This document shows positions 862-37,539 of a stretch of 37,882 nucleotides of DNA, piece after piece. Source of the stretch: Neolecta irregularis DAH-3 (taxonomy: Eukaryota); NCBI GenBank assembly GCA_001929475.1, contig LXFE01004415.1:1-37882 (forward strand), read 5' to 3'. Position 1 is the stretch's first letter, and every line of letters begins with the position of its first letter. The position numbers were made by a program, and so were the translations under genes. The notes beneath the pieces were generated by a model that was not told the DNA's origin, did not search any database, and worked only from the letters and a program-made list of their open reading frames with translations.

Positions 862-1949
862 ATGTCAGACAGCACAGAACTGGCGGTGCGGCCTAACGAC
901 AACACTATAACAGCCGCAGTGCCGCCTCTGAAAAAGTTGAAACGCCCTGCAGTTGTTCTCGAGGAAGATGAGTATATTGAAGCGCTGAGTAAGATCATCG
1001 AACGCGATTTCTTTCCCCAACTGGCCGAACTTCGCGCCTACAATGAGTATATGGATGCCCTGCAATCAAAGAACGCAGTGTGGATAGAGTCATCTGCAAG
1101 GAGGCTTGCAAATCCGGAGCAACCCAAAGAGAAAGATACCGAGAAATATGATATGAGTAAACGGCTGGATACTTTCCAGGCCATGTACACGAGCGAAGAC
1201 AACGCCTCATTCATTGGACTACTTGATCATACAAATGAACAGAGGAGAAAAGCCCGTCAGTGGGCATGGGAGGGTAATCGGATCAAGAACAACTCGAGAA
1301 CCAAAGACAACCATAACCAGATCGCCTGTATCGACAACCGGCCAGCTTCTGTTCAGAGTTGGAACCATAATGTATTTTGCGTCTTATGTGGATTTTACTA
1401 ATAGTACAGCCCATGAACTCATTGATGTATTTTCCAGAGGGCATTGATGAACCTCTGGTCTGTGACCGTTCAGCTCCAAAAGTCATTTCGCACGCGGCGA
1501 CCCGCCTGCAAACTCTAAAAGACACGTTGGAAGAACCTGCATTATCTAAAGAATCCTCTACAGTCACATCGACCAACGAGCCTTCTGTTCGTGGATATAC
1601 ATTCGTTGATCCAGAAGCCGCTCCCGCGGAACTCGGTGCCCCTCCACTGACTTGGGGTTCTATCGAATCAACTCCCTTGAGGATAACAAGGACACCAGGA
1701 TTCAAAATGCAGGAAATGCCGCGGCGCGATATCTTGGCCTCAAAACTAGTTGACAAGAACTCTAAAAGTCGAAAGATTCCCAAGTTCAGCAGTGGTCCAG
1801 ATCTCAAAAAGGCTATGATGAGTCCTGCAGGCCAGAGATTACTAGGAATGACGAGCGGTGATAGCAATAGTCTACGGACTGCATTGAGAACGCCTGCTCG
1901 GAGTAGACTGAAAGAAGGGTGGACGGTCACACCCAAGGGAAAAATGTGA
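862..1949 (+). CDS. ESS2: Splicing factor ESS2/DGCR14 (S. pombe Bis1-like)
   Basis: Motifs VLEEDEYIEALSKIIERDFFPQL, LDTFQAMYTSEDNASF, NSLMYFPEG, GYTFV, PPLTWGSIESTP and MSPAGQRLL. One 38-nt GT-AG intron (1372-1409) joins the two ORFs in frame. Confidence 0.9.
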
Positions 1950-2054
1950 GTTTTACTTTTCTGGAGTTAGGTTTATAAATCTTTGTAGATCATTATAATA
2001 ATATGTCCTCTCACTCATATTTCTATCCACAAATCAGTCAAGTTGATCGATTTT

Positions 2055-3066
2055 TCATCTTTCAGAGCCATCGACACTAGGCTTCCCAGATTCTCTCCTT
2101 GCTTTGGCCCTCTTGGTCCCTTTGAAAATCATATTATCAATCCCAATGTTATCAATCTCAAATTTTAAAGCGGTAATGATCAGGTCTAAAAAATTGAACT
2201 TACGCAATTCATTCTCTTTAGCCCATCTCCTACGTCTCTCTTCTTCTTTCTGTAATAACGCCATATCTCCGATGTCTTGGGCATGAACGCGACGATCTTT
2301 TACTATCGCGAGGAGATTGAAGCGTATTTCATTCGCGGGATATGCGTTGATTCGTTGTTGAATTACTTGGACCACTTTTTCGGGGAAAGAAGAGCAGGTT
2401 CCGTGGTTTATAGGAGCTTCTCTTAGACCGTCTAATTCAAACAACTGGCCGGCGTGTTCTAGATATGCAATAAAATGGAAAACATCGTCATCATCCGTAG
2501 CGGTTTTGACATCCTCGTTGACCCAGGGTTCATTTCGTGCAAAGCTGTTATGGACGCTTCGAATGAGCTCTGTCAGTTAGAATTATCGAGAAGGATGACA
2601 ACCCGAATTACTTAATGCTTCACCTCGAAATTCGGAAGGTAGGTGTTGAGAAAATTCTTTAAATTGAAGTAACTCTGGTCCTAGCTCAATTTCTGGACGG
2701 TTAAGCAAAACAGAAAGGATTGCTTGTGTTGCGCAGGCGTTGTTGATAGTCTAAATATGGATCAGTGTGAAAAATGTAAAAGTGATCCAAATACCTGATT
2801 TGCAAAACACATATCATGCGATGCATCGTAATCCAATCGTCCAAACATTTCCTGCTTCCCGGATCCAACATACTTGAAAAGAAAAATAACTCCATACGGC
2901 CTAGAAAGCTGTAAACATAATTTAACTGGGACTATTACAAAAGTGAACCAAGTTCCGCTACATCTAAAGAGTACAATTCTTCCACCTGTACATGTTTCGT
3001 GCCTAACGATTCGATCAAGGATGTGAAAACTCCGGGATCAGATTCGATGAGTTGCCACCCAGACAT
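2055..3066 (-). CDS. UCH37: Ubiquitin C-terminal hydrolase, UCH37/UCHL5 family (Uch2-like)
   Basis: [15 protein letters not shown], catalytic [35 protein letters not shown] and C-terminal ENELRKFNF. Introns at 2901-2938, 2751-2794 and 2570-2602. Confidence 0.92.
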
Positions 3067-4137
3067 TGCTGGTAGTTTATGTCAAGTGTTCTCTGTTGCA
3101 TGCGGACTTGGTTTATGATGCACTTTGCATAATCTCTACATAGTTCACGAGATGAAATATGCGTTTAATCTCGTTTCTGTTTTTCGTAACGACTAGATTT
3201 AAACCCGAGATATCTTTCGTTGGACCTCTCAAAAGGGGTGGATGAATTTACCAGACATCAATGATAACCGTGAACTTTCAATTTCAAAAAGCTGATATCG
3301 CTTTGCCTTGATCTCTTGAATGGCTCATTTGATAAAGGGTAAAGGTACCCTATTTCTGTGCTTACAAAATGCACATTTGCTGTGGGATTGAGTTATTGGT
3401 GCTACCCTTAAAGCAGTGTATCCTTCAAATCTTTGCTCTTATGACACGATTTGGAAAGTGTTCGGGACAGCTTTCCTACTGCTGTGTATCTTGCTCCAAT
3501 GAATTACACCTGGACAAGAGATGTAACTAAAACTCTTGTCTAGTGATCTCATGACGACATGTAAAGACACCGATTGTGGTTCCGTCTTTAGAAGACAAAT
3601 TAACAAGCCATAATTACTCCTGTTTAACTTGCTTAACCTGATTTACCTCTTTTAAGTAAGAATGGAATTGAGTATCATGAAAATTCCCTAATCTATTTTA
3701 TTAATGACGACTCAGCAAACCTGTAATGAATAGCTCGGCAAATATGGATGACTCTGAAAGTGAAATGACTATGTTGCAAAACACGGGATAGTCATTTAGG
3801 GAATTTAAAATCGATCAAAAAGCTTTGGTATAACAAAGACAGGATTTGCTATCAAATACAGTTGCGTACTCCAACCAACAGATACTGATGGAGACATACA
3901 GTGTAATGATTGGAATCGTACAGTCCCAGATAAAGGCGAGTAAGGAGCACAACGTAGTGCTAGAGACTGCAACATTCCCCACAGTAAAAAAGCAAGAGGG
4001 ACAGTAAGCAGCAATCGAAATATCCTTTGGTCTAATTTCGACTGAGACGAAATATAAGGCAGAGAAGCACAAACGGAAGTGAAAGAAAAAAAACATCGCA
4101 TCCCAGTGAAATCGCAATAATAAAATGAGTCAAATAC

Positions 4138-4855
4138 TCAGCGATCTTCAGCCCACTCGTTTTCTTTTCGAATTTGCGCCTAGTAATTGAGTATACCATA
4201 GACATAAAGAAAAAGACCTCCTCCTCAGGGGTAAAATCGTTGACAATATTGAAAGCCTTTCGGATTTCTTCTGGCGACTTTCCTTTTATCATGTTGGCGA
4301 CAGTTTTACATCCAACGTCAAGAAGTGGTTTTATGTCCATGTAATTCGCTGCCTAAAATGATTGTTAACATATGAAGGAGCAAGATCACGATTCGATTTA
4401 GGTTAAAAATGGTGAAAGCTTCATCGGCGTGATGAATGCGGGAGAGGACATACTAGAATGATTTCAAACAGCATTTCTTGGTCAACCTGCATGAACTTTT
4501 GGTCCCATTCTTCGATATCAGTGCTCTTTTTTCGCGTATCGTCAACCTCTTCTTCTAAGGCAACTGGGTCTGCTCGGTGGTGATCGCAGTATTCCAGAAC
4601 CTGTGGTGCTTAGCCCAAGGATGTAACACATAGCACATCGGCAGTACCTTCTTGAGAACAGGAGTGGTAACGTTTTGCAATGGGATGGCATCTTCACTCT
4701 CACCAACATCAGCAATCATATGTTTGATGAGGATGCTTCGTTCGGCGACTTCGCGATCTGTGCAGACGTTAGGATATGCCACACAATTAGACGCAGGTTG
4801 TTATACCGACCGAAATAACCACGCCATCGCTGGACTGGAGGTTTACTTTGGGCAT
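4138..4855 (-). CDS. SKP1: SCF E3 ligase adaptor Skp1
   Basis: [74 protein letters not shown] and C-terminal ENEWAEDR. Four GT-AG introns. Confidence 0.97.
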
Positions 4856-5121
4856 GACAAGTATGGGTTGCGATAGCTAGAATAGGCGACGGGGGCAGCT
4901 GGTTAGGTGTTGGTGAGGCGGCTGAAACAAGCCCAAGTCGCTCACGACGAAGCAAGATTTATAAACGGCCTTTTGCAATCAGTGCAAGTTCAAAATGATT
5001 CTGTTTGAGAAATCCCAAATGTCGTGCTCCAAGTGTTCTGCATGAATAAAACGATATTCCTTTCTGTTTTATCTATCGCCGTGTCCAACTCGAGAGCGTG
5101 TTCTGGTGTCTCCAGAACTTA

Positions 5122-6704
5122 ATGTTTTTTCTTACAAAGAAGCGGGCACTCTACGGTCTTCTAGTCCTTTTTCGACTTTATTTTGCCTTTCAGCCTTCGT
5201 ATATCCATCCTGACGAGCATTTTCAGGGCCCAGAGGTCTTGGCGGGTAAGGCGCTCGCTTACATTTTGATTTGTAACAAGGCATTTCAGGAGATTTATTC
5301 AAATGGGAGACAATCAAGACATGGGACTTCAGTTCAGATAAACCAATCCGTGGAATCCTTCCGTTGTGGATCTTTTATGCAATTCCGTTATTATCAACAC
5401 ATCTCTCGCGAGGTTATTTTTTCATTCAATCCTTCTGATTTCAGCCTATTTAAATCCAACATCGATATTCTATGCTTTACGTGCAGCGTTCTTTGTATAT
5501 TCATTCGTGATAGGTCTCACATGTCCTACTGAAAAGTTTAATATTGTATAGATTTATCACTTTACTTCTTAACACAAGACTTTACCTCGGTGCTCGTTTA
5601 CGCTTCAAGTTATATTACATGGACATATCAAACTCATACACTTTCAAACTCTCTCGAAGCGATTATATTGCCATTGATCATTGTAAAAGGGAAACAGTTG
5701 AAGATTATGGTTGTTTTTCCGTACTGTGATTTCACTATTCTGATCCCCAGAATAATCCTGTTACAGCAATGATGTTTGGAGGCCTTGTATCAATTGGGAT
5801 ATTTACCCGTGTGACTTATCCTATATTTATACTTCCAACCTGCTTAGAACTTATTCCACTGTTCGCCCGACGGTATCCATCATCCTTCTCGTAATGAGCT
5901 TATACCTTAGTCCGCTCCAGATATTCATCGTGAGCATGTCTTTCATGTTCATCAGCAGCATGTGTATCGCCGCGGATTCATATTACTATTCATCATTTCA
6001 AATAACCCCTCTTAATAACCTTCGATACAATACCCAATCTACCAATCTCTCAAAACATGGGCTCCATCCCCGACTGACACACCTGCTCGTAAATCTTCCG
6101 ATGTTGCTTGGGCCAGGATTATTCATCCGACCCTCGTACATCCCAAATATCATCTCGGCTATCGTTATCCTTAGTATGATACCGCATCAAGAAGTTCGGT
6201 TCCTTCAACCACTGGTATCGTTATGGCTCGCAGGGCGCAAGCCTAGGTACAAACTATGGTGGTGGTTGTGGATATTATTCAATATTTTCATGGCGACACT
6301 GATGGGATCCTATCACCAAGCTGGAGTTATACCAATGCAAACTCACATCAGAGAGGTATCTAGCGGTGAAGTCGTATGGTGGAAAACATACCCCCCTCCA
6401 TCTTACATTCTTGGTTCAAATAATATCTCCACTTTTCACGCCATAGGATATGATAAAGAAGCCCTTTTCGAATATACCACCTCGCATAACTCATCGTGTG
6501 CTGCCCTCCCCTTTTCTTGTTAACGTGTATAGGTATCTTGTCCTTCCTACCCTACTGAAAGACTCCTTTGAAGGATTCTATGAGGTTTTTCGCTATAAAT
6601 CCCATATTGGATTCGATGATTTGGATTTTAGTGATAGTATACTGGTTGGACTGAAAAATATTTGGTCTTTGAGAGGTTTGAGTTTAATGCAGAGATTGGA
6701 TTAG
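5122..6704 (+). CDS. SMP3: GPI mannosyltransferase 4 (Smp3/PIG-Z, GT22)
   Basis: [31 protein letters not shown]...[33 protein letters not shown] and WWKTYPPP; multi-membrane hydrophobic pattern. Six short GT-AG introns. Confidence 0.93.
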
Positions 6705-8480
6705 ATTTATAAGATCGAATTTTGCAACCGTTCATATTGATTTAACCCTAACAGTATTAATGATAGACCAACCAGTGAATCAATTGCCGGAAGATAACTG
6801 TAACAAGATATCTTTACTACTATGATGAGTAGGTAACACAAAAGATAAGGCACTACAGGATGCACAAGGAGTGTACAAAGAATGATGAGAATATAGGCCA
6901 ATGCGCATCAACCAGCCAGCCTTCCACAATAAGAAATAATTAGACAAGAGAAAATATAACAAAGTAGAAGCCCCTCTATCAATGCCCTGGAACCGGCAAG
7001 ATAGGATGAATGACGGTATGAGAAAACGGTGAGAAGTCCGGGAAAAATAAGTATTCTGTTGACCGTGCTACAAGCTGTCTCTTCTCTCCAAATTGAACAC
7101 ATTTTAGCAAGAGCTTTCGTAAATGAGGAGATTCTGGGTTGAGATGATTCAGCCTCTCCTTATTTTTCCGCTATAGTTTTCATTCTACGAAACAGCTGTT
7201 AGGACGCCTCCGAGCCCGTGAGTCACTTCCTTCTCTTTGCTCCGCTTCACTTTCAGCTCTCTCCTGAGTTACCGTTATAAATTTTTTTCTTTGGGAGATC
7301 TAGGGATGCTCTTCATCCCCCGAGTCCAGGTGTAAGTGTTGAAGCTCGAGTTCGGATAAGACCAGGTTTTATTATACTAGCCTAAGTGAGTGAACTTAGA
7401 TAAGGAACGCCAATCTACTTTATATAATACAATTTAAAATGCCGCAATATTATTTCAAGCCTTCCTTCCGTAATGGTAAGCTCTACCCGATGGTATATGC
7501 TTACACCAGCTTTCCTCTCGTTCACCTGACTCAACCTCCGCTGTTCTCTTGTTTCTCCTCGATAATAAGCCTCTGTATACTGCACACCAGTAGCACAAGA
7601 CTAGTAAGCCCTTATTGTCATTATTTTAAATATAAACAAGGATACAGTTACTGGTAATGGTATGCTCTCTTCAGAGTAACAATACTGGTTAGAGCATTCA
7701 GTCTCTTGATACCCAGTAGTGTCCTTTATATATCCTGATATATACTGGATTACACAGAGTGTCTCGGTCTAACTAGTAGTTTGTCCACATGGCATTCTAA
7801 ATGACCATACATTTGTGAGCGGTAGATAATCTCTTATCAACGAGCCCCATGATCAACATTTCTAAAAAAACATACATCACAAATATAATATTATATTCAT
7901 TCCTATTGATTAAATTTATAATATGATGCCATGGTGCTTTGACACCCTTGATAGAAAGAGCCGGAATCGAAGCACCTGTACAGTCGTCACTCCATTGTAG
8001 TTTTTTAAAATTATACCGTAGTTCGTATCCGCCGTTCATTGAAGCTAAAGAAAGGGCTATATTTCACATATCGAATGCAGCAGCGACTATCTCGCCTATT
8101 CGATGCGACATTCGCAAGTTCACCTACATAAGGCACAAGGTCCGAAGTTGTCGGGGTGGCATGAAATTTTCTTCTTCAAAGATTTCTCTTGCAATAACTT
8201 GCAATCGTGTATTTTCCCCTATTTTTGATCGACATTGCCATTTGAAATCACTTTATAAATATACAGATGTTATCTCGGATTCGCACATTTCATCACACTT
8301 TTGGACTGACCGAAACCAAGACTTCTGAACAAGTGTATCAATACACGCTTGGCTAGTCCTTCGATTTTCTGACTCGCCCTCGTATTATGAAACGCAGTTG
8401 TGACCGTCTTATACAGGAACAGTTATCGGCAGACAATGTGTAAGCTAGAGGTATCTTTCATCGCGATAATAGTCAGAAAA

Positions 8481-11370
8481 ATGAGGGATCCTTCGACATT
8501 TATCGAGCCCTTTCAGGATCTGTTTGAAGGCAGTAACATACGAGTTACACGTCGTATGAAGCAAGAAGTCCTCGGCATACGGAATATAAGCGATAAACAC
8601 AAGAGCTCAAGGCATATAAAACCACCAAGACCTCATAAGAGAAGTATCAATTGGAACCCTGATCAATCTTCACATGTGCAAAATCGGGATATTGACTATC
8701 CCAGTATTCAAAATATGGATCCTATGACAGCTGATGCTATAAATCCATCACTCGTTCGAAGGCGCTTATTTTCAAGTAGTGAATGGTTCATGCAGCCTGA
8801 AGCCTTCCAGTTTGGCTCCTCGCGAGCGGACTCGAGTTTCACCACGCTTCAAGAGCCAAATGCAGAGAAATTTCAAATACCACCCATTCCTATCATTGGA
8901 TCGGCCCTACCTTATCGGGTTGAAAACACCTCAAGACTACCTTTCAGATCTCAGATATCTGACCATGAAGAATTTCATGTGAGGACTAGGGACTCAGCTT
9001 TTAAAAAGATCTCTCTTGCACAAAATGACACTCCAGGTCTCCAAAGATTCACAGGCGAACATGCGAATTTCCAGAACCTGATTCCACAAGCCGTAGACGT
9101 ATCAACAAGCCTTACTACGAGCATCGGTCCGTTCATGCAACAAGACAGACCGGCCCAGTTCGAAAGATATCCAATCCACCTCGTTCCAAGCGCCCCGAAG
9201 GATGTCCCGCATGTTCCCGGTACCTGGCAGAAATATCCTTCGCTAATTCCTTTGATACCTAAGCCTCCTTTAAAAGTTCAACCGAACGGAAAATCTCTCG
9301 GTTTTTCAACTGATCATATTCCTGTTCAGAAAATCACCCAAAATCATAGACGAGCTTCAGGACATTACCCCAATAATTTTGGGAATGAATATATCCAATC
9401 TCATGTTCACTGCACAAATCAAAAACCGGAGTGTATTGGAAAACCCAAGGTTTGGGCCAATACACGTCAGGAACTTTGCGAAGGTTTGTCATATTTTCGG
9501 AGCTATCAAGGAGGGTGTTATTACCACAATGGTCTTGTTTTCGGTTACCTTGTAGATGGGTTCGGTTCTCCACGTGATTACGTCGGACCCAATGTCGTGA
9601 TAAGTCATGGTGGAGGAAAATCACAGATGGATCCAAAAACAGGTATCTGTACACTGCAGGACGATCAGCTTGTTACGGACAAGGCTATTTCCGCTCTCCT
9701 AAATAACTTTGCGAAAAACATCCCGCTTGTACTTTTGATTGGGAAAAATTGTGATGCGGCTCCGGCGAAGTTGTGTACGCCGTACGCAGTGATGGATTGG
9801 TTCGTAATCACATATATGTGGGTAGGACCGTCAAGCATTGGTATATCATGCTAAGGTTCAGCCCGAGAAGGATCCCATATCTGGGTTCATTCGCTGGAAA
9901 TTGAAATTCGAAAAGCTCACACCAGGCCCTGGCTGGTGGACACCGATCACATTGCAAACATCCAAAATGTACTCCGATGAGAACGGCCTCGGAATTTTCG
10001 AAAGCACATCGACTTCTTTTGCTGACTACAGGAGTAAATTTGACCAAGCAGCAATGAATTTCGGTGATCAGGCATCCTGCCTATGCTGTCATCGACCGTT
10101 CGTGCGTGTTTTCGAGGAGGATTGGACCTGTCTCAATTCTGAATGTGCTTGGTTTTGGCATAATAGCTCCTGCAGGGACCTATCAGAGCATGCCAACTAT
10201 AGCAAAGAGTTTCTCAGCCTGACGTTACAACCCACCACAATTGTACCTCACGATCTACGTATTCCTCTTCCTCGCAATGCCGATGAATTTTACAATAGCA
10301 AAGACATTTCAAAAATCTTTTGGCGGGGTTTTTGTTGCGCCGTGTGCGGGAAGGTATCTTGCAGAGAATTCTGGAGGGGTTGGATTTGTTCAGGATGCGG
10401 TTTCGAGTTTTGTCCTCCGCGTACGACATATACCGCAGCATCACTTGCCTGCCCATATGCTCCTGTTTATACAGGCCTACCTATTATCACCGGGGACCGA
10501 ATCTTCCATGAATCTGGTGTCCAGTCCGAGGAATTTACACTTGAGAACATGCGAGTCGCTAAATACAGCCTGAAAGATTGCGGATATGTATACCATATTG
10601 TAGCAAATCAGTCCGGGAATATCGAAGCTGATGATCTCTTTTATCGCTACCAAACAGAAAACGTCAAATTCCAGCGGCATGAGCTAACGACTCATCGCAG
10701 TAGGAGCTCCTATATTTTTGAGTTCAATATCTGATTGATCGTTAGTAACTGGTCGTCTGCTAACACAACAATTCACCTTCAATGCTGGTAAATCATACAA
10801 ACACGTTGTCTCCATGAACACAACACCATTCGACGAAACACCTGCAGTTATTAGAGATACATTAACTGCCTTGAATAACCGGATTAGAAAGGTTAACCTC
10901 GGTGTTGATCCGAGATTCAACGAAATTCTCAGCATTGCATATATGGAGGGCCAAAAGATGGGATATCACGATGATGGTGAAGAATCTGTAGGGGATGTGA
11001 TCGCTTCTATTTCTTTCGGATCATCCGCCACCATGAGATTTCGTAGAAAGAAAAAACTGTTGAAGCCTACCACAGCCAAAGCCGGAATTGATAACCTCGA
11101 CTTACCAGATATTCAATCCGGTATGAACAACCGGCAGCTACCTGTACCTGGAAAGGTTGTTCTTGAACTCAAATTGAATCATGGCGATGTAATGATAATG
11201 TGGGGTCGACGTATCCAACGAGATTATGTAGTATAATTCTTCTCCGCTGTCTAGTTTGCTCATCTTAGCACACAGTTATTCCAGAGGGTTTGCGAATCGC
11301 GGCGACGGCAAGAAACCTTAATGTGCCAGAGTCTACAGTATTTGGTGAGAGATGGAGAGCTTCTGGATGA
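8481..11370 (+). CDS. Fungal AlkB-family 2OG-Fe(II) dioxygenase with N-terminal SRA/YDG-like and Cys-rich regions
   Basis: C-terminal FNEILSIAY...MGYHDDGE...IASISFGSSATMRFR...LNHGDVMIMWG...H...RIAATAR (HxD, distal H, RxxxxxR). SRA-like block at about 9436-9920; several CxxC pairs at about 10078-10460. Introns at 9822-9861, 10700-10745 and 11231-11268. Start codon uncertain. Confidence 0.8.
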
Positions 11371-12670
11371 TCTATCCACTCAAATCCCACAAACAAAAAC
11401 CCCTATATTCACCAACCGAAACTGTACTTTTTTGCATGGCCAAGAAATATATCGCCTTCGGATTGTAGAGTCACTTCCATCCGTTATACCGGCGTCGAGC
11501 GTATATCGAGATGATATCGTAGTCTCGACTCCGTTCCACGCGCCTAAGGGCCTGACCTCTTAAATACCATCAAGTCGCAATTATTCCGGGTGAACGATAG
11601 GTGCACAAGGTTTGTAACCTAGCCTATACTCAGATGAATGGGCTCATTTTTGCAAATGCCAATTATCTCTTCCTATGATATCATTTACATCAGAAGGGTT
11701 TCTCGTTCCACTTGGGTCATTATTGTGATGGTGCGGTAGCCCTTAATCGGTACTTATTACTGTTCATTATATTTCAACATATCGCCCATCCCTCTGGCGA
11801 TAGGCTAGGTAGGGTAGTTTAGTATTTGTGTTAATGGAGGTATGGCTTAATAGTCATTGTTTGACACCAAAATGTTCAGTCAAATGTTCAGTGATGCCTC
11901 CCATTAGCCTGTCAATGAGGCCTGTGTGATTAGCTATTACACCAGAAACTGATTTTGGTTGAAAATGACAAACAAGGGGAAGAAAAATGCCCAAGTCTGA
12001 AGCAATCAACCAGAATAAGTATGCTAGAGCATTCTACTTCTTCCTATTATTTACTTTGGAGATTTCAAAAAGAAATTTGAACGAGCCTCAATTTCGTCCT
12101 AAGCGGGGTTGCATTTGTTCAACTTACATCGGTAGATATCACTATACCCAGGGCAAACTGGCCAGGTGACACATTTCACACGCCAGATATGTTCGATATC
12201 GAGCCTTCTGAAAACCTATGGAATGGAGTCGAGAATTTATCAAACCTTAGAAATATTGAGTATGACATGAAATTGATCAACTCAACGTTTCTTGACGAAG
12301 TTCTCGTTATCTTGTTTTGGATACCTCGCCTGAAAATACTGGTGCAGAGGCTCAAAAATGGAATCGTTTCATAAGTCAATCAGATCGCTATAAATTGTGG
12401 GAAAACGGAATATGGTGGTCCATTTCAGCAGCCTGTTCGAAAAAGCATGGTGGACACCGGCTGAACAGGCTCGCTGTGCGAGGTCTTGTGCGACCCAGTA
12501 CTTTTAAGACAACTTTGAAGATTGGTAGGCGATTGCAAATGACACATGTCCAGATAGGAAGAGACCTTGAAGCATCAAAGTCTAAATTTTGATCAACCAG
12601 TGCAAGATATAACTTGTGGGAAGCAACACCTAGGACATATTTATTACACAACATATCGAAATCTCATGTT

Positions 12671-15600: not shown

Positions 15601-15929
15601 AATGATGACCTGTAGCGTCTTGGAACAACCGTGATATCGGAGTGTCATCCCCTGGTTTGCGTGTGATTTCAAGATCTCGCTCCGGATGAGCGATTGGAGA
15701 ACACATACATACCATCAATATCCTGAGGATTTGCAAGATCCAGTCTGAGCAGCCGGCCCGAAGCCAATGCCATGATAAGAATATTGTTGCTGACGGTCAT
15801 GGCGGTTATCGACACTGCGAACTGGAGCTGGACTCTGGATATGGAGAAGATATCTGGTTGCTCGACAACGAGTCCTTGTGCGGCATCTTCGATATATGCT
15901 TGTTCGTGATCCAATGGCAAAGCAGCCAT
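12671..15929 (-). CDS. VPS18: HOPS/CORVET subunit Vps18/Pep3
   Basis: FQDATGHHLII, EILIG, EDRDIWKIFL, MIATWVLEIYL, FYDLDFALRLC, KKLWLRIA and C-terminal RING CFHC...FYVFPCQHTFHADC...AAECVLCG. Ten short introns. Confidence 0.95.
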
Positions 15930-25703: not shown

Positions 25704-28352
25704 ATGTCCAGGTTCTTCAAGGGCAGCGACAGCGACAGCAGCAGTAGTGATTCATCAGACGACGAGATCTACTCTGATAATGAGCGGGCGATATCGGAAG
25801 AAGAGTCTTCCAGTGAAGACGAATCTAGTCTAGAGTCTGGTGGTGAATCAGATGCTCCGAAAAAGAAGTCCGCAAACCGCTTTTTGCGAGGCGGTGAGAG
25901 TGACGAGAGCGACTCGGATGATGCGAAGCGTATCGTAAAAAGCGCAAAGGACAAACGGATGGGCGAAGTTGAAGCATGCATAAAGGTGATTGAAAATGCG
26001 GAGAAAATCAATGATTGGAGTGCTATTTCCGTCGGTATAGTCGTCTTTCCTTTGAGTAGCCTAAGACCACAGAATTCGATAAATTGAATAAAGTTGTTCA
26101 AAAAGTCAGCCAGTCTGGAAAAACACCTCGCATTTATATTAAAGCAGTCGCCGATCTTGAGGAGTTCATGAATGAGACGCTTCAGAAAGAGAAGGACGCA
26201 AAAAAGAAGTTGAACGCCACGAATGCAAGAGCTTTAAACCAAATAAAACAGAGAATTCGAAAGAACAATCGAGCCTATGATCAAGAAATCCTAAAGTATC
26301 GTGCTGATCCCGAAGCTTTCGAAGAAGAGGAGGAAGTTTATGAAGAGGTTAAAAGGCCAAAATCGAAACCAGGCGAGGATGAAATTATTGTCGATGGTGT
26401 TTCGAGACGTGGAATTCTTGCGGATGGTGATGATGAAGGGTTTGCTACTGTTGGGAGAGGCGGGAAGGCGGTGCTTTACACACCTGAAGGAATCTTCAAG
26501 CATTTAACTGCCATTTTTGAAGCTCGAGGAAAGAAAAATACCGACCGCTCAGAGCAAATCAAGGTTCTTGAGAAACTTCGCGATGTTGCCCATACTTCTC
26601 TGCAGAAAATTGCTGTTCTTTTAGCCCTTATCTCTGCTCGGTTCGATTTAAGTGCCGGTACCGCTGTATATATGACGGTAGAGCATTGGAAAGCGTATGA
26701 CCTTTTGCGAAATTTGTGCGCTAATTGCAGTGCTGAAACCGAAATCAATATTTTGATCGATGTTCTCGAAACAGACCGTTCATTTGTCATTGTTGATGAT
26801 GGTATGGAAATCAACGAAGACGAATTGCCCCAGCCTGGGGAGGACGGTATCACTAGAGTACGCGGAAATGTCATGTCTTTTGTCGATAGGCTTGATGACG
26901 AACTTACTCGGTCATTACAAAACATCGATCCGCATACTTCGGAATATATTGATCGACTGAAGAATGAAACTAGTCTCTACAATCTCCTTCTTGGGTGTCA
27001 AATTCTTTTCGAACGGATAGATCCAGGCGAAAGTCTTAATCGAGTTGTTTCCCGCAGATTAGAGCGGTTATATTTCAAGGAAAGTGAAGACCTCGCATCT
27101 CTTATTAATAGCTACAGCCGGAACAAGTTATCACAACTCTCGAGCAAACGACTTGGTCATCTTTACCTTCGCACATGGATAGTTTTTTAACTCCACGAAG
27201 TCTGAGTATCAAATCCTCAGAACTCATCCATATTCTCTGCGTCCATCTTTACAAGAAGGGCACTGGTTTATCCCGCACCCGAGCAATGCTCTGTCACATT
27301 TACCACCATGCTCTACACAATCGTTATCACAAAGCAAGAGATATGCTACTTATGTCACATTTGCAAGAATCCGTTCATCTTGCCGAAGTTAATACTCAAA
27401 CTCTGCACAATCGAACCATGGTCCAGTTGGGGCTTTGTGCATTCAGACTCGGAATGGTATCAGAATCACATTCATGTCTCCAGGAAATTTGTGCCGCCGG
27501 CAAGCTGAAGGAGTTACTGGCCCAAGTATCTGCTTCCTAGCATCTCATTTAACAGTTCAGGGCATTCAGTCGCAGCGATACTCACAAACAACCCCTGAAC
27601 AAGAAAGGCTTGAACGACAACGACAGTTGCCTTTCCACATGCATATCAATCTCGAACTGATTGAATGTGTATACCTAACCTGTTCTATGCTTCTAGAGAT
27701 TCCAAATATGGCAGCTGCTGGAACTTTGCCCGAATTCAAAAAGAAGGTCATCAGCAAACCTTTCCGCAGAATGCTCGATTATCATGAACGTCAAGTCTTT
27801 GTTGGGCCTCCTGAAAACATGCGAGACCATATAATGCAGGCATCTAAAGCATTTTCAAACGGAGATTGGGTTAAGACGAAGGATTTGATTCGGTCCGTTC
27901 GGATATGGGATATTATGCCTCAAAGCGAGAGCATAAAAGAAATGTTGACACAGAGGATCCAAGAAGAAGGACTGCGTACTTATTTGTTCTCGTATTGTCC
28001 GTTCTACGATACGCTTTCCATCAGCGCTGTTGCCGGTATGTTTGACTTGCCCGAGGATAAAGCAATGGCTATTATGTCGAGAATGATAATGAATGAAGAG
28101 ATTCCTGCGTCGCTAGACAATATTGACAAGACGGTTATCTTTCATCGTATAGAAATCAGCAGATTACAAACCCTCGCTCTAACTTTGACTGAGAAAACCA
28201 CGGGACTAGCTGATGCCAATCAAAAGTTAGTCGAAGCCAAAGCCCAAGGCCAAGGAGAAGGACAACGAAGACCACTTCGACACGATAAGGATAAGCCTGC
28301 TCGAGGACGAAAAGTTGAGTTTAGAAACGCCGGGCGTGCTGTTCGAACATAG
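25704..28352 (+). CDS. NIP1: Translation initiation factor eIF3 subunit c (Nip1)
   Basis: MSRFF plus acidic/Ser tract, [57 protein letters not shown] and PCI region. Introns include 26695-26730 (in frame) and 27080-27117 (GA-AG). Confidence 0.97.
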
Positions 28353-28701: not shown

Positions 28702-30105
28702 ATGACATCTTCGTCATCATCCGTTCTCAATGACTTTCCCACAGAGATCTTGCTACGAATTTTCGAACACATTGAACCCAGAACACGGTCGCAACACCTC
28801 GAAGATTACTGGCCTTCTTATCTTGACCTCGACGAACCGCTCGATCATTCGCATCTCTCGACCGCTCTTTCAAGGATCCTGACATTGAGTGCTGTGTGCA
28901 AATTCTGGCGTGCGATAGTATCCAGTTGTGGCTTTTGGAATGTATTTGATTGGACAAAGACTATTCAATGGCATCAGCCGGTATCACAGCTCCGCGACTT
29001 TCATCGTCATATTGCGGATGAATTACCCCGAATCGCAAATGTTCGCGAAGTTATGATTAATCTCAAACTTTTACGGTTTCCCGATTACATCGAAACGCTT
29101 GGTCGTATCCTGCGGACGGGAAATGTTGAGGTTATCTGGGTCAAATTTAGAAATAACCCTGATTTCCACTATATCAACGACAGCAATTCAAGTAAAGGTA
29201 TTGATGCACTCATTTCCAAGGAATTTCGATCCATGCATCGCTACCTAAGAAAATTGAGAGTCTTGAAAGTACGCGATTGTCCACTAGATCCAAAAAACTG
29301 GAACAGATTGTTCAAAATCATTCCGGACAGTGCAATTAGAAGAATCACAGAACTTGACATTGCTTGCAAAATGTCCGACTCAACGCTAAACTACACTCTT
29401 CGAGAATTCTCGAAAAGAATGCGACGGTCTGATGCAAAAATATTATGCTTGTCTGAAGCAACTCAAAATGTTCATACTTTTTGGGCTTCTCCGTTATCTT
29501 CATTAACATCTTTTCTTGGTTGCTTCGGTCGTCTTGTTTCGTTAGAAATTGATTACACTACAATTGCACGAGCGTATAAGGATGAAGCTACTGATAAAGT
29601 AAAGAAGGCATGTATCGTCGAATTTCCTCATCTTTCGCGCGAACATCAATACTGTATGAACATCCTTCTCTCTACGGTTTTGAGGAATACGATATTGGAG
29701 TCTCTTAAAGTTTTATGTCTGGACTGGTTTGATGGTGAAGCTCTTGTTGTATTCAAGGAGAAAACTGGATTAAAATCCTTGGAAGTTGGATTCTACGATC
29801 AAATGGTGTTTTCAAGGTTGCGGGACGATAACCCGAATCTAACAACTCGAACGGAACAACTCGACTGGATAACTGCACAAAATGAAGCTCTGCTTGCAAA
29901 GGATATACATGTTCAATGGCAAGGTATTCGGGAGCTTTGTACGCGACTAACCCCGTTCTTTCATCATGCAGCAATCCATTTACACGACGAAGATGATTTT
30001 GACGATTTCGCCCCGATAGTTTTACCAGATTTTTTCATCGAGCCGGTCGTTCTTCCGGACCCATTAGGTCTCCTCGAAGATGAGGAGTTGCAAGAATTTT
30101 GGTGA
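28702..30105 (+). CDS. Intronless F-box protein with LRR-like C-terminal region
   Basis: LNDFPTEILLRIFEHI...LSAVCKFWRAIV F-box with an insertion, repeated LxxLxL segments and an acidic tail. Single uninterrupted ORF. Confidence 0.8.
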   Translation: MTSSSSSVLNDFPTEILLRIFEHIEPRTRSQHLEDYWPSYLDLDEPLDHSHLSTALSRILTLSAVCKFWRAIVSSCGFWNVFDWTKTIQWHQPVSQLRDFHRHIADELPRIANVREVMINLKLLRFPDYIETLGRILRTGNVEVIWVKFRNNPDFHYINDSNSSKGIDALISKEFRSMHRYLRKLRVLKVRDCPLDPKNWNRLFKIIPDSAIRRITELDIACKMSDSTLNYTLREFSKRMRRSDAKILCLSEATQNVHTFWASPLSSLTSFLGCFGRLVSLEIDYTTIARAYKDEATDKVKKACIVEFPHLSREHQYCMNILLSTVLRNTILESLKVLCLDWFDGEALVVFKEKTGLKSLEVGFYDQMVFSRLRDDNPNLTTRTEQLDWITAQNEALLAKDIHVQWQGIRELCTRLTPFFHHAAIHLHDEDDFDDFAPIVLPDFFIEPVVLPDPLGLLEDEELQEFW

Positions 30106-30233: not shown

Positions 30234-31607
30234 CTAATCCCCACCGAGGCGTTCTCTGAATGATCTTTTATTGTGCATAATTGTCAGAAGCCTCCTCAGG
30301 AAAGGCGTATAATCATGTTTCTTACGAATAGCGTATTCCTGACGTCAGTAACGAAATTTGCATAAAAGATACCGAGAAACGAACAAGTCGATCTTTCTCC
30401 TGCTGAATCTTTGCTCTCGTCTTGCCCACTTGCGTTTTCTTCGGCTGATATTGAGAAAGCAATTCCTCGATTTCCGGGCTCAACAGTTCAATTTTAATCG
30501 GCGGGATATCGCTGAGTTCTGAACGGCTGTTTAGAACAATTCGCCATTCCGGGTGTAACTCGTCGAGTTTCTTCTCAATCGCCTGAATTTCCTCGAGGGC
30601 AAGAAATTCCTCTTTTTGCCAATTTGGTGTGCAAAGCTCGTCAACTGCCAAAAGGTTGAAGCGGATTTCATCCGCTTGGTAGCTATGCATTTAACCCCTA
30701 TCACAGATAATGATATTACGCTTCCATGCGTTGCTGGATACGGGGTGCTGCGTGAGATACCCAGTTGTCTTCGGTGCAGGCGCCTAATCATGAATAATTG
30801 TTAGCAATAGAGACATACAGATACGAGTCGGATTTTTCTTCAGTCCATCCAACTCCCAGAGAGCGTCATTTTTATGAATGTATGCGATAAAATGGAAATC
30901 CTCGGAAAGTTCATCTACATCGGTCAATCGTTTTGTTGATGCTTCCATCAATGCGATATCTTGCGCCATCATCTCGGTTTTTCTTACTAATTAGCAGCGC
31001 CAAGAAAGGATTTCTAACCGACCATACTGGTTGTGTATGGATCGAAGGAAATCAAAGTTTTTGATTGTATAACCACGTTCCTATCATTCAGCCTCGTTAA
31101 ACGCGAGAAGTGCAACTGTTGGAGGTAAGGGAAATGTAAATTGCTGAAAGGATCTGAGATGCTCGCCAATATCCAACTGCGGACAATTGAGCACAATATT
31201 GAGAATCGCCAAGCTGGCACAGGCATTGTCGACTACCTTTACAATGAGCAGTGTTTGCCATTGGAGTGTACCTGATTTGCAAACCAGACATTCTCCGGAC
31301 AGCTGACTTCTACTTCCTCTTCTTCTCTCTCAGCCTTCCATCGAAAGAGGAAGATCAAGCCATATATTTTCCTTCGGTTCTTAGCTTGTGTATAGAAGAC
31401 TAGAATTCAAACCCCAAATCACGCATTGAATCCTCATCAATCGAGTATAGTTCTTGGACTTGCGCATCCTTTACCCCCAATGTGCACATAATGTCGTGAA
31501 ATATTGCCTAGAGTATCTAGTCGGGCATGAAGGAGATATACGGGCTCGCTCTCGAGGGTGCAGAAGCCTTTCCATTGCCGGCGTTCTTCTTCTGTATCAT
31601 AGACCAT
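30234..31607 (-). CDS. Second UCH37/BAP1-like ubiquitin C-terminal hydrolase
   Basis: [57 protein letters not shown], a coiled-coil-like region and RKKHDYTPFL. Eight GT-AG introns. Confidence 0.88.
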
Positions 31608-31836: not shown

Positions 31837-34800
31837 ATGGATGATCTTCAAACAGATCTGGGTGTCAGTCTTGTTGACCAAGACCAGTTTGAACGAGATG
31901 TGGCTGCAACGGTATTTACCTGAATCTCTAAACTTTGATTAAGTAGATCAAGGCCGACAAAGCTATTAATGAACGCGAAGTAGAGTTGGACAAGAAACGT
32001 CTGGAAAAGACTGAAAAAGACAAGGCGTAGGTCCCCATCTTACTATTGTACAAACGTATAGGAAAGCAAAGAGTCAAATACGCCTTCTAGAGGCTCGTCT
32101 GGAACATCCAAATACAAAAATTAGTACCAAGCAGTCCATCCGCGAACAGATCCGCGAACAAGCAAGTCACTTGGAGAAATATACTTACTAGAAGGAATCT
32201 CTTGTGAGTCAGCTTGAAAGAGATATTTTGGAAATTAACAGCCGTCTTGAAGAACGTCGGGAAGAAATTACCGAAAAGTCTACCTCGGCTACCGGTTCGT
32301 TTCAATGAAACGATTCGTTTTTGACATGTAGATCGTATTTCCAATGAAACAGAAAGAGAGTATCTTATAAGAACCGGGAAAATCACTCCTTTTGCAAATA
32401 TAAACGGGCTCGAGCGGGCATCTCATCATGAGAATGGTGATGGACGAGAACCTGGTGATGAGGAGCAAGTGATGTCTCATCGGGATTTACGAGAACCAGG
32501 ATTTGAGATTGAAACAACTTGTAAACGGTCTCGTCTGTCCAAAGGTCACAAGAACTCGGACGAAGAAGGTACATATCGTGATGAAGAGATTTTAGAATCG
32601 GAGTCTTCTGGTGATGATGATGACTCCTCGACAATTGGGGACTCGAGAAAACGACGACGAAAGGCGCGCAAGGGTATGCAGATTGTCACTGGAATCGATG
32701 ATGGAGATGAGAAACTATATCCCAGACGTATTTCTTTGTGGTGCGAAAGACGGAGTCGTGCACGAGAGAAATCTCAAATAGCCGTTCCGGATACTTTGGA
32801 TGACTCTCTACTCGAGGAAGAGTTCTACAAACCGCATCCTACTGAGCCTGATACAATTTACGATGGCGGATACGCAATTCCTGGCGATGTTTATCTTGGC
32901 CTATTCGATTATCAGAAAACATGTGTTCAATGGCTCTGGGAGTTGCATTGTCAGGGAACTGGAGGTATTATTGGCGATGAGATGGGCCTTGGAAAAACTA
33001 TTCAGATCATTGCGTTTCTAGCAGGACTGCATCACTCGAAAAAGTTGACAAAACCTGTTATCGTAGTATGTCCAGCGACAGTTATGAAGCAATGGGTGAA
33101 TGAATTTCATAAATGGTGGCCACCTTTACGGGTTGTAATTCTACATTCTAGTGGAAGCGGGATGGTAAATATCAGCAAAGAAGAAATGCTTGAGAAAGAG
33201 TTGATTAGTGTTGTTCAAGGCCAAGGCAAGAAAGCCATTCCAAAGAATGCCTCTTTTGCCGAGAATATCGTAAACAGGGTAGTTCAAGATGGTTCGTGAC
33301 ACTAAGGAAGTACTCACGTTTAGGGCATATATTGATTACCACGTTTACCGGGACAAGGATATATCGAGATCAATTGCTTAATGTCGAATGGGGCTACTGT
33401 ATTCTCGACGAAGGACACAAAATCCGCAATCCCGATTCCGAAATCTCACTAGCATGTAAACAAATAAAAACCGTCCATCGAATAATCCTCTCAGGAACTC
33501 CGATGCAAAATAATCTAGTTGAATTGTGGAGTCTTTTCGATTTTGTATATCCAGGTCGTCTGGGAACATTACCTGTTTTCCAACAACATTTTGCCGTTCC
33601 TATTAATATTGGCGGATATGCGAACGCGACAAATGTTCAGGTTCAGACGGCATATAAATGTGCTTGCGTCCTGCGAGATTTGATTAGTCCTTACCTCCTT
33701 CGAAGAATGAAAGTAGACGTTGCAGCGGATCTTCCAAAGAAAAGTGAACAAGTTCTTTTCTGTAAACTCAGTAAAGTGCAACGAGCAGCTTATGAAGAAT
33801 TCATTGGTTCAAAGGATATGGAATCGATTTATAATGGTAAACGTCAAGTCTTGTATGGAGTGGATATCCTCCGAAAGATATGTAATCATCCCGATTTACC
33901 TGCGAGAGACACCCTTTTAAAGAAGGCGGATTACGACTATGGGATGGGTGAAAAATCTGGGAAAATGCAAGTTGTCAAAGCTCTTCTTGAATTATGGAAA
34001 AAAGGGGGCCATCGTACGTTATTATTTACTCAGACACGACAGATGTTGGATATTCTTGAGAAATTTGCAAAACGGCTTGGTTCGTACGAGTATCGGCGAA
34101 TGGATGGGAGTACGCCAATTGGACTTCGACAATCGCTTGTTGATGAGTTTAATGAAAACACCGAGATTCATTTATTCCTGTTGACGACTCGAGTTGGTGG
34201 ATTGGGTATTAATCTTACTGGAGCAGATAGAGTGATTATTTACGATCCCGATTGGAATCCATCTACCGATGTTCAAGCTAGAGAACGAGCATGGAGACTG
34301 GGTCAAAAGAAGGATGTGACGATATACCGACTCTTGACTGTTGGAACGATAGAAGAAAAGATTTATCATCGACAGATATTCAAACAATTTCTCACAAACA
34401 AGATTCTTAAAGACCCTAAACAGCGACGATTTTTCAAAACGAATGATTTACACGACCTTTTTTCTCTTACTGGGGCAAATTCCAACTCTACGGAAACAGG
34501 AGACTTGTTTCACGGAAGTGAAATTTCGTATGGAAGCAACGACCGCCGTGTAAAGAAGCACAATCTTGGAAAAAACGACGATAATCCATCGGTATTAACG
34601 ACCATTGGTGGGGTAGCTGGAATAGAAGAATTCCAAACACAAGACTCTGAATTGCAAAACAACGACGAAAACAACGACGACGATACCCGGATTCTCGCAA
34701 ATTTGTTTGAAAGTGCAGGAGTTCACAGTGCACTTGAGCATGATTCAATAATGAATGCAAGTCGTCAAGAAACAGTACTAGTTGCCAAAGAAGCAAGCAG

Positions 34801-35191
34801 GGTAGCCAAACAAGCCGTTGAAGCCCTCTTAAAATCTCGAAGAGAAGCGCAAAAAGTTAAAATTGGAACGCCTACTTGGACAGGTCGCTTTGGAAGATAT
34901 ACATTTGATCAACAAACATCGTCGTCGTCATTGAATAACTTGTCTTCATCTATTTTGCTTGCGAATATGAAAGCGCGTCAAGATGCCACGCCCGGATCTG
35001 GAATATATTTAATTGATCGATTACGAGATTTTTTAAGTAATAAGGGTGGACGAGTGCGTACGTTTGATCTAGTCAAGCATTTTAGCGCGAGTGTAGTTGG
35101 AGCTCAACAAGTTTCTACATTCAAGATGATGATAAAAGAAATTGCAACACTTGAAGGTGGATTCTGGGTTTTAAAAAAGGAGTTTGAATAG
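31837..35191 (+). CDS. RAD26: Transcription-coupled repair SNF2 ATPase Rad26/Rhp26 (CSB/ERCC6)
   Basis: [61 protein letters not shown] and GTPTWTG. Five introns, one with a GC donor at 32162. Confidence 0.96.
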
Positions 35192-35336
35192 TATTTTCTT
35201 TTTGGGGGGTAATTGTATATAAGGGATACCAAATAGCCGATGTTAAAAATAGCATACCGCGCGTGAAACCGCGGAGACTAGTGCCAACACTCTAAACTCT
35301 AGCTTCTCCTTTCAACAAGATATTCTGTTGTGGTAT

Positions 35337-36239
35337 ATGTGGCTCTATTATCATTATTTTGTAACATGTCTATTGATGGTTATTGCTGCTACTGGTAAGG
35401 TTGATGGAAAATTAAACTGACTAGAGATTCTTTGTCAGCCAATGATGCAGGGACGATAACGAAGACCTCTACGGCGTCTATTAATTCTGGATCGGCTAGT
35501 GATTCAGCGACGATAACAAGTGCGGCATCGTCGCCAACGGGTACAGGATCGATCTCTAACAAGCATGGAGGGGCGAGCAATACCCATTCTTCGGCAGTCC
35601 CATCGATTTCAATAGATCCAAGAAGTCCAGCTGGTGCAGTTGTTATTGTTACACCTGCAGTGGCATCTGGAGTGTCATATTATCGGATCGGACAACAAAT
35701 TACTTTTGCATGGAATTATACGAATTTAATAGTGACGCCCACTCAAATCGTTGTTCAAGCTTACTGTTCAATGAACAAGTATGTTGCTTAATTTAACGGT
35801 TAGACTAAGTACTAGAGCACAATATACGATAGCAGCTAATATGAGTGCTGCGAAAACGACTGTAGTTTGGGATACCAGTGCTTACCAAGCGAATGCGACT
35901 GTTCCATTGTTGACGTATATACTAGTTACTTTATGGACTAATTATGGGCAAGGGCTTCATATACGCTTATGATTTACGATGCGGTGTCGGGGAGCACGGC
36001 TGCTCCGAAACCTGGGTATCTTGCGGCATTTAGTGGCTTATCATTTGGGATGTACTCATCGCAGCCGTATGCGCCGCTTGATCGTAGGTAAAATGTATAG
36101 ACTGGGGCTTACTGGGTTAGAATTTACTTGTGCGACATGTAATGTGAAAGGTTTGGCGTCGGCAAAGTATCTGGGATTATGGTTTATTGCGATTGGGGTT
36201 ATTTTTGCTAGTAGTTTTATGAATTTTTTGTCTGTTTGA
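35337..36239 (+). CDS. Conserved fungal secretory-pathway membrane protein of unknown function
   Basis: Signal peptide, Ser/Thr-rich stretch, IDPRSPAG, YYRIGQQITFAWNYT, FGMYSSQPY...FTCATC and a C-terminal hydrophobic segment. Four introns. Confidence 0.8.
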
Positions 36240-36672
36240 ATGAGTTGGATATGGTTGGGGTATTGCTGGTGGTATGTAGTAGAAAATCTTTCAACGAGAT
36301 TGAACCTAATGGGTGTGCAGAGAGACGGACACTCACGCTCACATCATACGCAAACACAGAATGGAGAGGACGAATGGGATGCCCGAATAGAGAGGAGTGG
36401 CTGTGCACCGCAACATTTGAAGCTACAAGAGTGTTTTTCGGCAAGCGGCGACTGGCGGCAATGCAGAGCCGAGGTTGTCTAGACTTTTCAGGTGCTAATT
36501 TGAGATGCAGCAGTTCCGCGAGTGTTTTGCGGCTGTGAAAAAGCAGGAGGATCAGTAGTTGAGAATAGTATACAATACACTGAATATTATAGATCAGATA
36601 CAAAAATATGCCGAACAATAGTACGGTAGTATGTATAACAGTGGGTGGTGTGAATTTTCTGCAGTCACCACC

Positions 36673-37539
36673 ATGACTGCTATTTTTGCCCGCCCATTTT
36701 GCCGGCTTACTATTCCCACTGTGCGCGCATTTAGCCGAGCGTTGCCTCGACGGGCGGCCTATGATTCCGGAGATTATGCAGATTACGAATCTGGTAGCAG
36801 CTCGACTGGCAGTAGCTCGACAACTGCACCTGCTTCTGCGACCACGCGACTCAACGACGCTCCTCTTGTTCTGCAGGAAGGCGATCCTACCAAGGTTGAT
36901 TGGGCTAGATCGTTCCATGGGCTATCTACTGAAGCGTTTCCGGAAGACGCCGTCCGGACTCTGACTGCTCCGATCGACATTGACGATATTGAAATAAAGC
37001 CAGGTGCGACTTGTGCTTTTGCCCCCATTAACGGGTGTTTAGACGGCGTTGTATATTTGCCTGAAATCAAGTATCGGCGTATACTGAACAAGGCGTTTAG
37101 TCCTGGAGGGTGGGGCCTTGCGCCTCGAGGCGAGACAAGCGTTACGGGGAAGCAGGTGTCGCGAGAATACGCACTGGTGTGCAATGGGCGGTAATGAGCC
37201 CATAGCGAGGCAAGTCATTAAGAAGCCAGGCTTGTTAGTGTTGCGCGTGGCGAGCAAGACTACTTTGACACGAACGGGATAGCGACCGCTACGGAGGGGT
37301 GCAAGAGCAATGCGCTGATGCGGTGCTGCAAGGATCTGGGCATTGCGTCGGAGCTGTGGTACGGCCGCAACAGGCTGCGGGGCTGACTAATCGCCAGGGA
37401 CCCGCGCTTTGTGCGCAAGTTCAAGAAGGAGCACTGTGCCGAGCAGTTTGCAGAACACGTGGTGAGCAAGAAGAAGCGCAAGCTGTGGCGCCGCAGGGAA
37501 GACCAGTTTGAGTATCCGTACAAGGCTGCGACGTTCTAG
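36673..37539 (+). CDS. MGM101: Mitochondrial genome maintenance protein Mgm101
   Basis: Arg-rich presequence, [69 protein letters not shown] and EYPY. Three introns. Confidence 0.96.

Follow-up and report, generated by a model that had tools for sequence, protein, structure and literature searches.

Very short introns with weak and occasionally non-GT donors in a contig of Neolecta irregularis

Introns and genes of the window

Neolecta irregularis is an early-branching ascomycete of the Taphrinomycotina. The stretch of DNA analyzed here for its introns, referred to as the window, is contig LXFE01004415.1 of strain DAH-3 (assembly GCA_001929475.1), read over its whole length of 37,882 nucleotides (nt). 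Gene models were curated by hand from three-frame translations, and junctions were judged by reading frame and homology. The models place 80 introns in 16 genes, alongside one intronless F-box gene, and in 16 of 16 an open frame past the last intron reaches a stop codon. Lengths, read directly from the models, range from 31 to 101 nt with a median of 38, and 74 of the 80 introns fall between 32 and 45 nt. Seventy-five introns begin with GT, three with GC and two with GA, so that non-GT donors make up 5/80 (6.25%). Acceptors are TAG in 35 introns, CAG in 26, AAG in 15 and GAG in four; G at +1 and a terminal AG are present in all 80, where non-AG ends were not searched for when the models were built. 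Judged from sequence, the window introns are confirmed as real, about 38 nt long, with an unusually weak donor and a few starting with GC or GA.

Inspection of the donors reveals 52 distinct hexamers among the 80 introns, only nine of which fit GT[AG]NGT; position +3 is A in 74%, +4 is T in 51% (41/80) and +5 is G in 44%. The strict branch motif CTRAY occurs in 33 introns versus 8.3 in shuffled sequences (no more than 15 in any of 200 shuffles) and lies for the most part 7-12 nt ahead of the intron end; the looser CTNA occurs in 65 versus 30.3. The branch A lies at about +29 to +30, 6-11 nt ahead of the intron end, and a polypyrimidine tract is absent (pyrimidines make up 52% ahead of the AG). 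Lengths that are multiples of three are under-represented (16/80, P = 0.012), and 13 of these 16 introns contain an in-frame stop. A YAG within the last 12 nt is skipped in five of the 15 AAG introns. Boundaries are ambiguous by one or two codons at 5710, 9861, 13279 and 32194. A preliminary description, made from the letters alone, had counted about 79 introns, mostly of 32-45 nt, with varied donors, five non-GT donors (3 GC, 2 GA), recurrent AAG and GAG acceptors and loose branch motifs near the AG. This account stands: its two length examples (5413-5444, 32 nt; 2570-2602, 33 nt) are exact, all six hexamers that it quoted occur, and each non-GT donor fits homologues or Pfam.

The genes are described from the left end, with Pfam as the basis of assignment unless another is given. 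An Es2/Ess2-family gene (862-1949, plus strand; PF09751) carries one intron (1372-1409). A ubiquitin C-terminal hydrolase of UCH37 type (2055-3066, minus) has three, and PF01088 is collinear across its 33-nt intron 2570-2602. A second ubiquitin C-terminal hydrolase (30234-31607, minus) has eight, three of them with AAG acceptors; both hydrolases on this one 38-kb contig are of UCH37 type with a UCH_C match, and they share an intron at Peptidase_C12 profile position 84|85. Skp1 (4138-4855, minus) has four introns, including the sole long one (4353-4453, 101 nt), which is a candidate small-RNA host or regulated intron; an Rfam scan of the window gave no match up to E = 1 and no small nucleolar RNA in this intron. 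The Glyco_transf_22 mannosyltransferase (5122-6704, plus), which we take to be Smp3-like, has six introns including the 32-nt 5413-5444, and a 2OG-Fe(II) oxygenase (AlkB-like) gene (8481-11370, plus) has three. Vps18 (12671-15929, minus) has ten, one ending in GAG and one in AAG, and PF05131 is collinear, within about one position, across five junctions.

Further right lie a mitogen-activated protein kinase kinase kinase of Byr2/Ste11 type with SAM, Ras-binding and kinase domains (16081-18721, plus; five introns), a beta-hexosaminidase (18930-21159, minus; 14 introns, six with AAG acceptors; homologue profile) and a protein kinase, presumably of Yak1/DYRK type (21696-24421, plus; six introns). 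Rec7/Rec114 (24621-25568, minus) has three introns with AAG, GAG and GAG acceptors; its first junction is Pfam-collinear, and we place the two GAG junctions by frame and by a putative C-terminal motif. These are followed by eIF3c (25704-28352, plus; four introns; homologue profile), the intronless F-box gene (28702-30105, plus) and Rad26/Rhp26 (31837-35191, plus; five introns; same as public protein P0001). A DUF7137 gene (35337-36239, plus) has four introns with Pfam collinear at the junctions, a CHCH-domain gene (36309-36558, plus) has one 31-nt intron ending in GAG (36474-36504), and Mgm101 (36673-37539, plus) has three introns of exactly 39 nt each, at all of which PF06420 is exactly collinear.

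Junction support and non-GT donors

Junctions in three genes (23 of the 80 introns) were compared with profiles made, with Neolecta left out, from the first 60 homologues that had a suitable length, and all frame-keeping G..AG alternatives were scored for each. The chosen junction ranks first in 19 of 23 cases and second or third in four; wherever another GT option exists (21 cases), the chosen junction outscores the best of them. Pfam profiles are collinear across junctions in Mgm101, Vps18, DUF7137, Rec7 and the two hydrolases, and the remaining junctions were placed by reading frame and by the general features of the protein families.

All five non-GT junctions are consistent with homologues or Pfam, and two public models fail exactly there. 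In Rad26, the GC-AG intron 32162-32194 (plus; 33 nt to AAG, 30 nt if it ends at the TAG three bases earlier) scores 15.4 bits over the best GT alternative. Our Rad26 model is identical to P0001, this intron included; the profile favors the TAG end by 3.9 bits, and the public model takes AAG. The GA-AG intron 27080-27117 of eIF3c (plus; 38 nt, AAG|GAAAGT) shifts the frame and scores 14.7 bits over the best GT option. Public model P0121 differs solely at this intron, where it takes the GT four bases further along, at the cost of a conserved proline; the aromatic-aromatic-Lys-Pro motif at the junction is present in 118 of 119 homologues. The beta-hexosaminidase GC-AG intron 19489-19525 (minus; 37 nt) leads its best GT alternative by 25.5 bits, and public model P0241 again differs solely there, with 16 residues lost. 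The GC-AAG intron 23205-23239 (plus; 35 nt) in the kinase domain is flanked by Pkinase positions 52-132 and 135-210, and its GT alternative deletes the catalytic loop. The GA-AG intron 16247-16288 (plus; 42 nt, CAG|GAAAGT) lies within the SAM domain, in frame and stop-free. SAM homologues are 14 residues shorter than its read-through, and the Pfam SAM profile becomes collinear once the intron is removed. Among 14 SAM matches picked from 150, seven fit the spliced form and seven are open reading frames with an insertion at the same point; judged by sequence, these seven probably read through an intron at this position in other organisms. Of the three public protein models compared for this key early-branching ascomycete, two are wrong at a non-GT junction, with consequences for comparative work built on such models.

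Compensation at the non-GT donors can be read directly from the flanks, where the mean number of matches to U1, out of seven, is 3.0 for GT donors, 4.3 for GC and 6.5 for GA in the window. GC-AG introns of the major spliceosome in general likewise have stronger flanks than GT donors.

A wider sample of 80 separate 10-kb stretches (800 kb) was analyzed with a gene finder that has no donor flank model and is offered decoy donors. Of the 80 window introns this finder returns 60-63 with exact boundaries, and of the GA pair no more than one. Of 1,111 introns called, 676 were kept by a filter on flanking exon length and score, with no N. These have a median of 37 nt and comprise 649 GT, 24 GC, two GA and one decoy donor, with 95 AAG and 27 GAG acceptors; U stands at +4 in 321 of 676. 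GC donors make up about 3% after decoy subtraction, at two priors, and within the filtered set they carry A at +3 in 19/24 and G at -1 in 20/24. The GA share of about 0.3% (2/676) is a lower bound, because one or both of the GA introns in the window escape the finder. Overall, non-GT donors amount to about 3-4% in the 800 kb. Five or more of 80 has P = 0.12 at 3.3% and so agrees with this share, but not with a fungal mean of 1.3% (P = 0.004). Given these GC and GA shares, the window is probably a draw above the genome average; the preliminary figure of about 6% non-GT holds for the window, beside 3-4% in the wider sample.

Four GA donors are now known, two in the window and two outside, and all read G|GAAAGT. 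A is present at +3 in 4/4, and the exonic bases are AG in three and TG in one. G|GAAAGT sites were picked 2/130 times versus 5/3376 for decoy sites (P = 0.025); a lax finder setting picks decoys often (28/3376), and other GA hexamers there were left uncounted. The intron in an actin-family gene, first found without flank information, joins actin-profile positions 99|100 (Pfam) and has no GT or GC alternative. With the other removed, in an importin-beta gene, the protein stays in line with a known structure, although the junction falls in a loop of weak conservation. In L106 a C|GAAAGT candidate was rejected, since by our reading of the protein family a GT four bases on suits it better. Pairing of all GA donors with U1 is nearly perfect, so the sequence of the donor continues to matter.

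GA donors with exonic AG and +3 A have been described in the copepod Eurytemora affinis and the tunicate Oikopleura dioica, at 3-12% (Robertson 2017, PMC5714493; Frey and Pucker 2020, PMC7072748). The Neolecta donors resemble these in the +3 A and in being missed by standard gene finders, and in part in the exonic (A)G, which is a full AG in three of four. They differ in frequency, at a few per thousand (2/80 in the window, 2/676 in the wider sample), in belonging to a fungus and in their fixed GAAAGT hexamer. In addition, at least one Neolecta GA intron lies at a position shared with other organisms, whereas copepod GA introns appear recently gained.

Recognition of short introns and its alternatives

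To learn how introns are picked, a selection test in the style of Lim and Burge was applied with about 228 candidate pairs per intron and site matrices from the ab initio set. Donor and acceptor matrices alone choose the true pair in 19 of 80 introns; adding the branch site raises this to 35 and adding length to 45. All features together choose 59, and 51 are still chosen without any donor flank. Length and branch site thus identify the true intron better than donor flanks do, a result that is supported and partly circular: the length prior and branch matrix derive from this window, so the test flatters geometry. Exon-side and intron-side matches also compensate for one another among GT donors of the window (rho -0.28, P = 0.014).

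We consider it probable that these are U2-type introns, shrunk to about 37 nt, that are recognised across the intron, with weak donors and tolerance at +2. U1 would bind a weak G|GTAT-like donor with a low threshold for pairing, and U2 would bind a CTRAY-like branch site some 29-30 nt downstream of the donor. Cutting would then follow at an AG 6-11 nt past the branch A, with little regard to the preceding base. C at +2 (about 3%) or A (a few per thousand) would be tolerated when the rest of the donor pairs well with U1. We infer intron definition as the physical mechanism, in which the donor may have decayed since much of the information comes from length and branch position. Such a genome offers a natural test of the minimal sequence needed by a spliceosome at near-fixed intron length.

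Published values place these introns among those of other fungi. The Neolecta mean is 42 nt in Nguyen et al. 2017 (PMC5309816) and 41.5 nt when divided from the table of Lim et al. 2021 (PMC8476143), the shortest among the 15 Table S1 rows compared. The same division gives 46.1 nt for Rozella, 46.8 for Malassezia pachydermatis, 48.0-50.7 for Pneumocystis, 78.7 for Taphrina, 82.7 for Saitoella and 88.5 for S. pombe. Donor and acceptor information was computed over the same positions and against the same background as in Iwata and Gotoh 2011 (PMC3033335). The weakness of the donor is evident directly from the hand set, at 5.46 bits (bootstrap range 5.27-6.08, with a small-sample bias near 0.2), and from the introns called ab initio, at 5.02 bits (a value depressed by mis-calls). 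Their table gives 7.09-7.86 bits for 11 fungal rows other than S. cerevisiae, and just one of its 61 species lies below Neolecta. Acceptor information, at 5.12 bits, is inside the fungal range of 4.96-6.07; the oddity therefore lies mainly at the donor. GC-AG, at about 3%, is at the top of the tabulated fungal range of 0.4-3.8% and three times the fungal mean of 1.0%.

Neolecta introns are members of the U2 class. Their closest known counterparts are the short introns of Pneumocystis, Cryptococcus, Rozella and S. pombe, which are spliced by intron definition and with which they share GT/GC..AG ends, a CTRAY-like branch site, absence of a polypyrimidine tract, high density and a notable role of length. 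Neolecta differs from these in being shorter (41.5 versus 46-88 nt in the rows compared), in donor information lower by about 2 bits, in a +5 G of 44% and in recurrent GA donors. A larger role of length in fungal introns was already reported by Iwata and Gotoh, and weak signals in intron-rich species, with constrained branch-to-AG distances in some yeasts, by Irimia and Roy 2008 (PMC2483917). What is new is that extreme shortness, very low donor information, a fixed GA class and +4 U alongside a retained METTL16 occur together. A literature search in which subscription journals are thinly covered gave no paper on Neolecta introns or splicing or on fungal GA-AG introns, and the available text of Cisse et al. 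2021 (PMC7940399) covers intron numbers only.

Neolecta might instead be an unexceptional intron-rich fungus that occupies the short end of a continuum, its weak donors and 6% non-GT share being products of sampling and hand-picking. Mean introns of 46-51 nt in Rozella, M. pachydermatis and three Pneumocystis species are in keeping with this, as are GC-AG shares reaching 3.8% in other fungi, the generally weak signals of intron-rich species and the 3-4% non-GT of the wider Neolecta sample. Moreover, the literature search, including the available text of Ma et al. 2016 (PMC4764891), gave no donor statistics for Pneumocystis or Saitoella. We nevertheless regard it as quite unlikely. Donor information is about 1.6 bits under the lowest fungal row and above only one of the 61 tabulated species, and the flat-donor finder agrees on independent DNA (5.02 bits). 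Repeated GA donors are, in addition, on record for a copepod and a tunicate, with none for fungi found in the literature searched.

Errors in the assembly could also turn true GT donors into apparent GA donors, or the GA donors could be poorly spliced alleles that are tolerated because a partial transcript suffices. The +2 A was read from the assembly; the SAM-domain intron is in frame and stop-free, so retention would still yield protein, and intron retention is reported as common in Pneumocystis (Ma et al. 2016). Random errors, however, are expected at typical weak donors, and yet all four cases are GAAAGT, a hexamer whose AAGT tail at +3 to +6 occurs in only 7 of 649 GT donors. Three of the four introns (eIF3c, actin-family gene, importin-beta) also shift the frame. 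Both versions together are highly improbable.

Several points weigh against recognition across shrunken U2-type introns as set out above. The selection test, besides its circularity, still misses 21 of 80 introns. The ab initio set shows no compensation among GT donors (rho -0.02, P = 0.53), the 3' site carries ordinary information, and the excess of GA sites over decoys is numerically small. Fifty-seven of the 80 introns lie outside the homologue-alignment test and are supported by frame and, for some, Pfam coordinates only. All junctions were read from genomic sequence alone. The preliminary description had suggested that length or geometry might be what mainly defines the introns, through an unusually permissive spliceosome. 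The selection test and the low donor information favor this, but the role of length in fungi was already known, GC-AG is within the fungal range and the non-GT donors are compensated by U1 pairing. The comparison with other fungi, run here on published tables, is likewise divided: donor information far below other fungi and the shortest mean intron set Neolecta apart, while 3' site information and GC share do not.

Splicing machinery and Prp18

Genome searches for small nuclear RNAs yielded U1, U2, U5 and U6, and the motifs seen directly in them are canonical: the U1 5' end, the U2 branch-pairing motif, the U5 loop and the U6 ACAGAGA. The U1 gene (L001:1501-1646) scores under the Rfam cut-off (43.7 versus 69.5 bits), and its first loop departs from the consensus. 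There are two U2 genes (L003, L004), which differ in their 3' halves. The U6 gene (L002:269-417, minus; G000:C1963) holds a 50-nt intron of messenger RNA type just past the ACAGAGA box, with a perfect GTAAGT donor; S. pombe U6 has an intron at the same place.

The least probable reading, by a small step, is a dedicated GA route, whether by a variant U1 with a compensating base, a minor spliceosome or RNA editing at +2. A variant U1 has been proposed for copepod GA-AG introns (Frey and Pucker 2020), and U12-type introns are described with an ATATCC-type donor and a CCTTAAC-type branch site (Iwata and Gotoh 2011). Our U1 search scored 41 of 209 candidates only and gave a single match, but the sole U1 found has the canonical 5' end, the GAAAGT donors are unlike the U12-type ATATCC donor, and no U12 match appeared in a genome search that gave no positive-control match either. 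Adenosine-to-inosine editing does not produce U and so would not restore these donors.

Most of the proteins checked look conventional. U1C, Luc7, METTL16 and SNRNP27K genes were all found, which rules out loss of any of them. METTL16 keeps its NPPF motif and SNRNP27K its key methionine (Met141), at the level of sequence. Parker et al. 2023 (PMC10581693) tie these two features to +4 A donors and link the +4 U preference of Saccharomycotina to few introns and loss of METTL16 or SNRNP27K. Neolecta shares the +4 U preference, yet it is intron-rich and keeps both genes, and is thus an exception to the reported link and counter to its trend. Suppressor-like changes in the Prp8 RNase H domain were sought and rejected: the first exon matches human PRP8 at 102 of 104 residues and the second aligns gap-free across the domain. 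The piece compared does not extend to the alpha-finger residue by which acceptor -3 is read. Extra Prp8 matches were rejected as a second gene. They are at least four decayed fragments on other contigs (L117:2536-3354, L118:1578-1775, L119:1033-1330, L120:47-215; 84-94% nucleotide identity to the intact copy), of which the longest spans both introns and was therefore copied as DNA.

Prp18 appears to depart from this pattern. The gene is present (L124, minus; G000:C702), its family confirmed by search, and at the sites of yeast Asn190, Trp193, Val196 and Thr197, all in the first half of the conserved loop, it carries His, Asn, Ile and Ala, respectively. A 25-residue exon after the loop has neither a Pfam nor a PDB match, and the next exon matches Pfam. 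PDB searches with the two short exons gave nothing, and among metagenome sequences 469 pattern matches gave no confirmed homologue. The suspected permissive spliceosome finds a possible counterpart in this loop, though not in the small nuclear RNA motifs or in most of the proteins checked.

Wilkinson et al. (10.1101/212811) describe a yeast post-catalytic structure in which acceptor positions -3 and -4 are braced by the Prp18 loop, and U+2 of the donor forms a pair with A51 of U6 beneath the docked G of the acceptor. Yeast lacking Prp18 or its loop activates GAG and non-AG acceptors and sites closer than 10 nt to the branch, and Prp18 is not required where the branch-to-acceptor distance is short (Roy et al. 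2023, PMC10711555). Neolecta shares with that mutant the AAG and GAG acceptors, a loop that looks altered and branch-to-end distances below 10 nt (22/31 strict branch sites in the window, 194/252 in the ab initio set). It differs in that these are the normal state of a genome, while the yeast case is a mutant with minor side products. Some of the short introns of S. pombe depend on Prp18 (Melangath et al. 2017, PMC5728500).

By analogy, short introns may have released the loop from selection, so that exon-ligation fidelity would be lowered in a genome whose branch-to-AG distances are all short; we hold this possible but doubtful. A broader version, in which the eroded loop and near fixed-length introns together would lower proofreading at exon ligation naturally, so that essential genes could use GA donors and non-YAG acceptors and +4 U could stand beside METTL16, is less likely still. 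The loop comparison covers one other species, yeast, and the exonic A enrichment after GAG sites that marks the yeast mutant is not evident in Neolecta, both of which count against these proposals. The Prp18 lead is a correlation, and its link to donor +2 is hypothetical. If true, Neolecta would parallel in nature the fidelity mutants of yeast and would be a fungus whose genome has a regular GA-AG class. Neolecta also offers a natural test of whether fidelity at donor +2 and acceptor -3 shares one checkpoint.

Outside the modeled genes, three stretches of 0.7-1.6 kb (3200-4130, 6800-8400 and 11980-12660) hold no gene model and open frames of up to about 130 codons, and the three frames scanned gave no Pfam match. 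The Mgm101 region is richer in G+C, at 52% over the last 1.9 kb versus about 43%. Past Mgm101, at 37540-37760, purine-rich short tandem repeats flank a gap of 10 N and are followed by a GCC run at the contig end.

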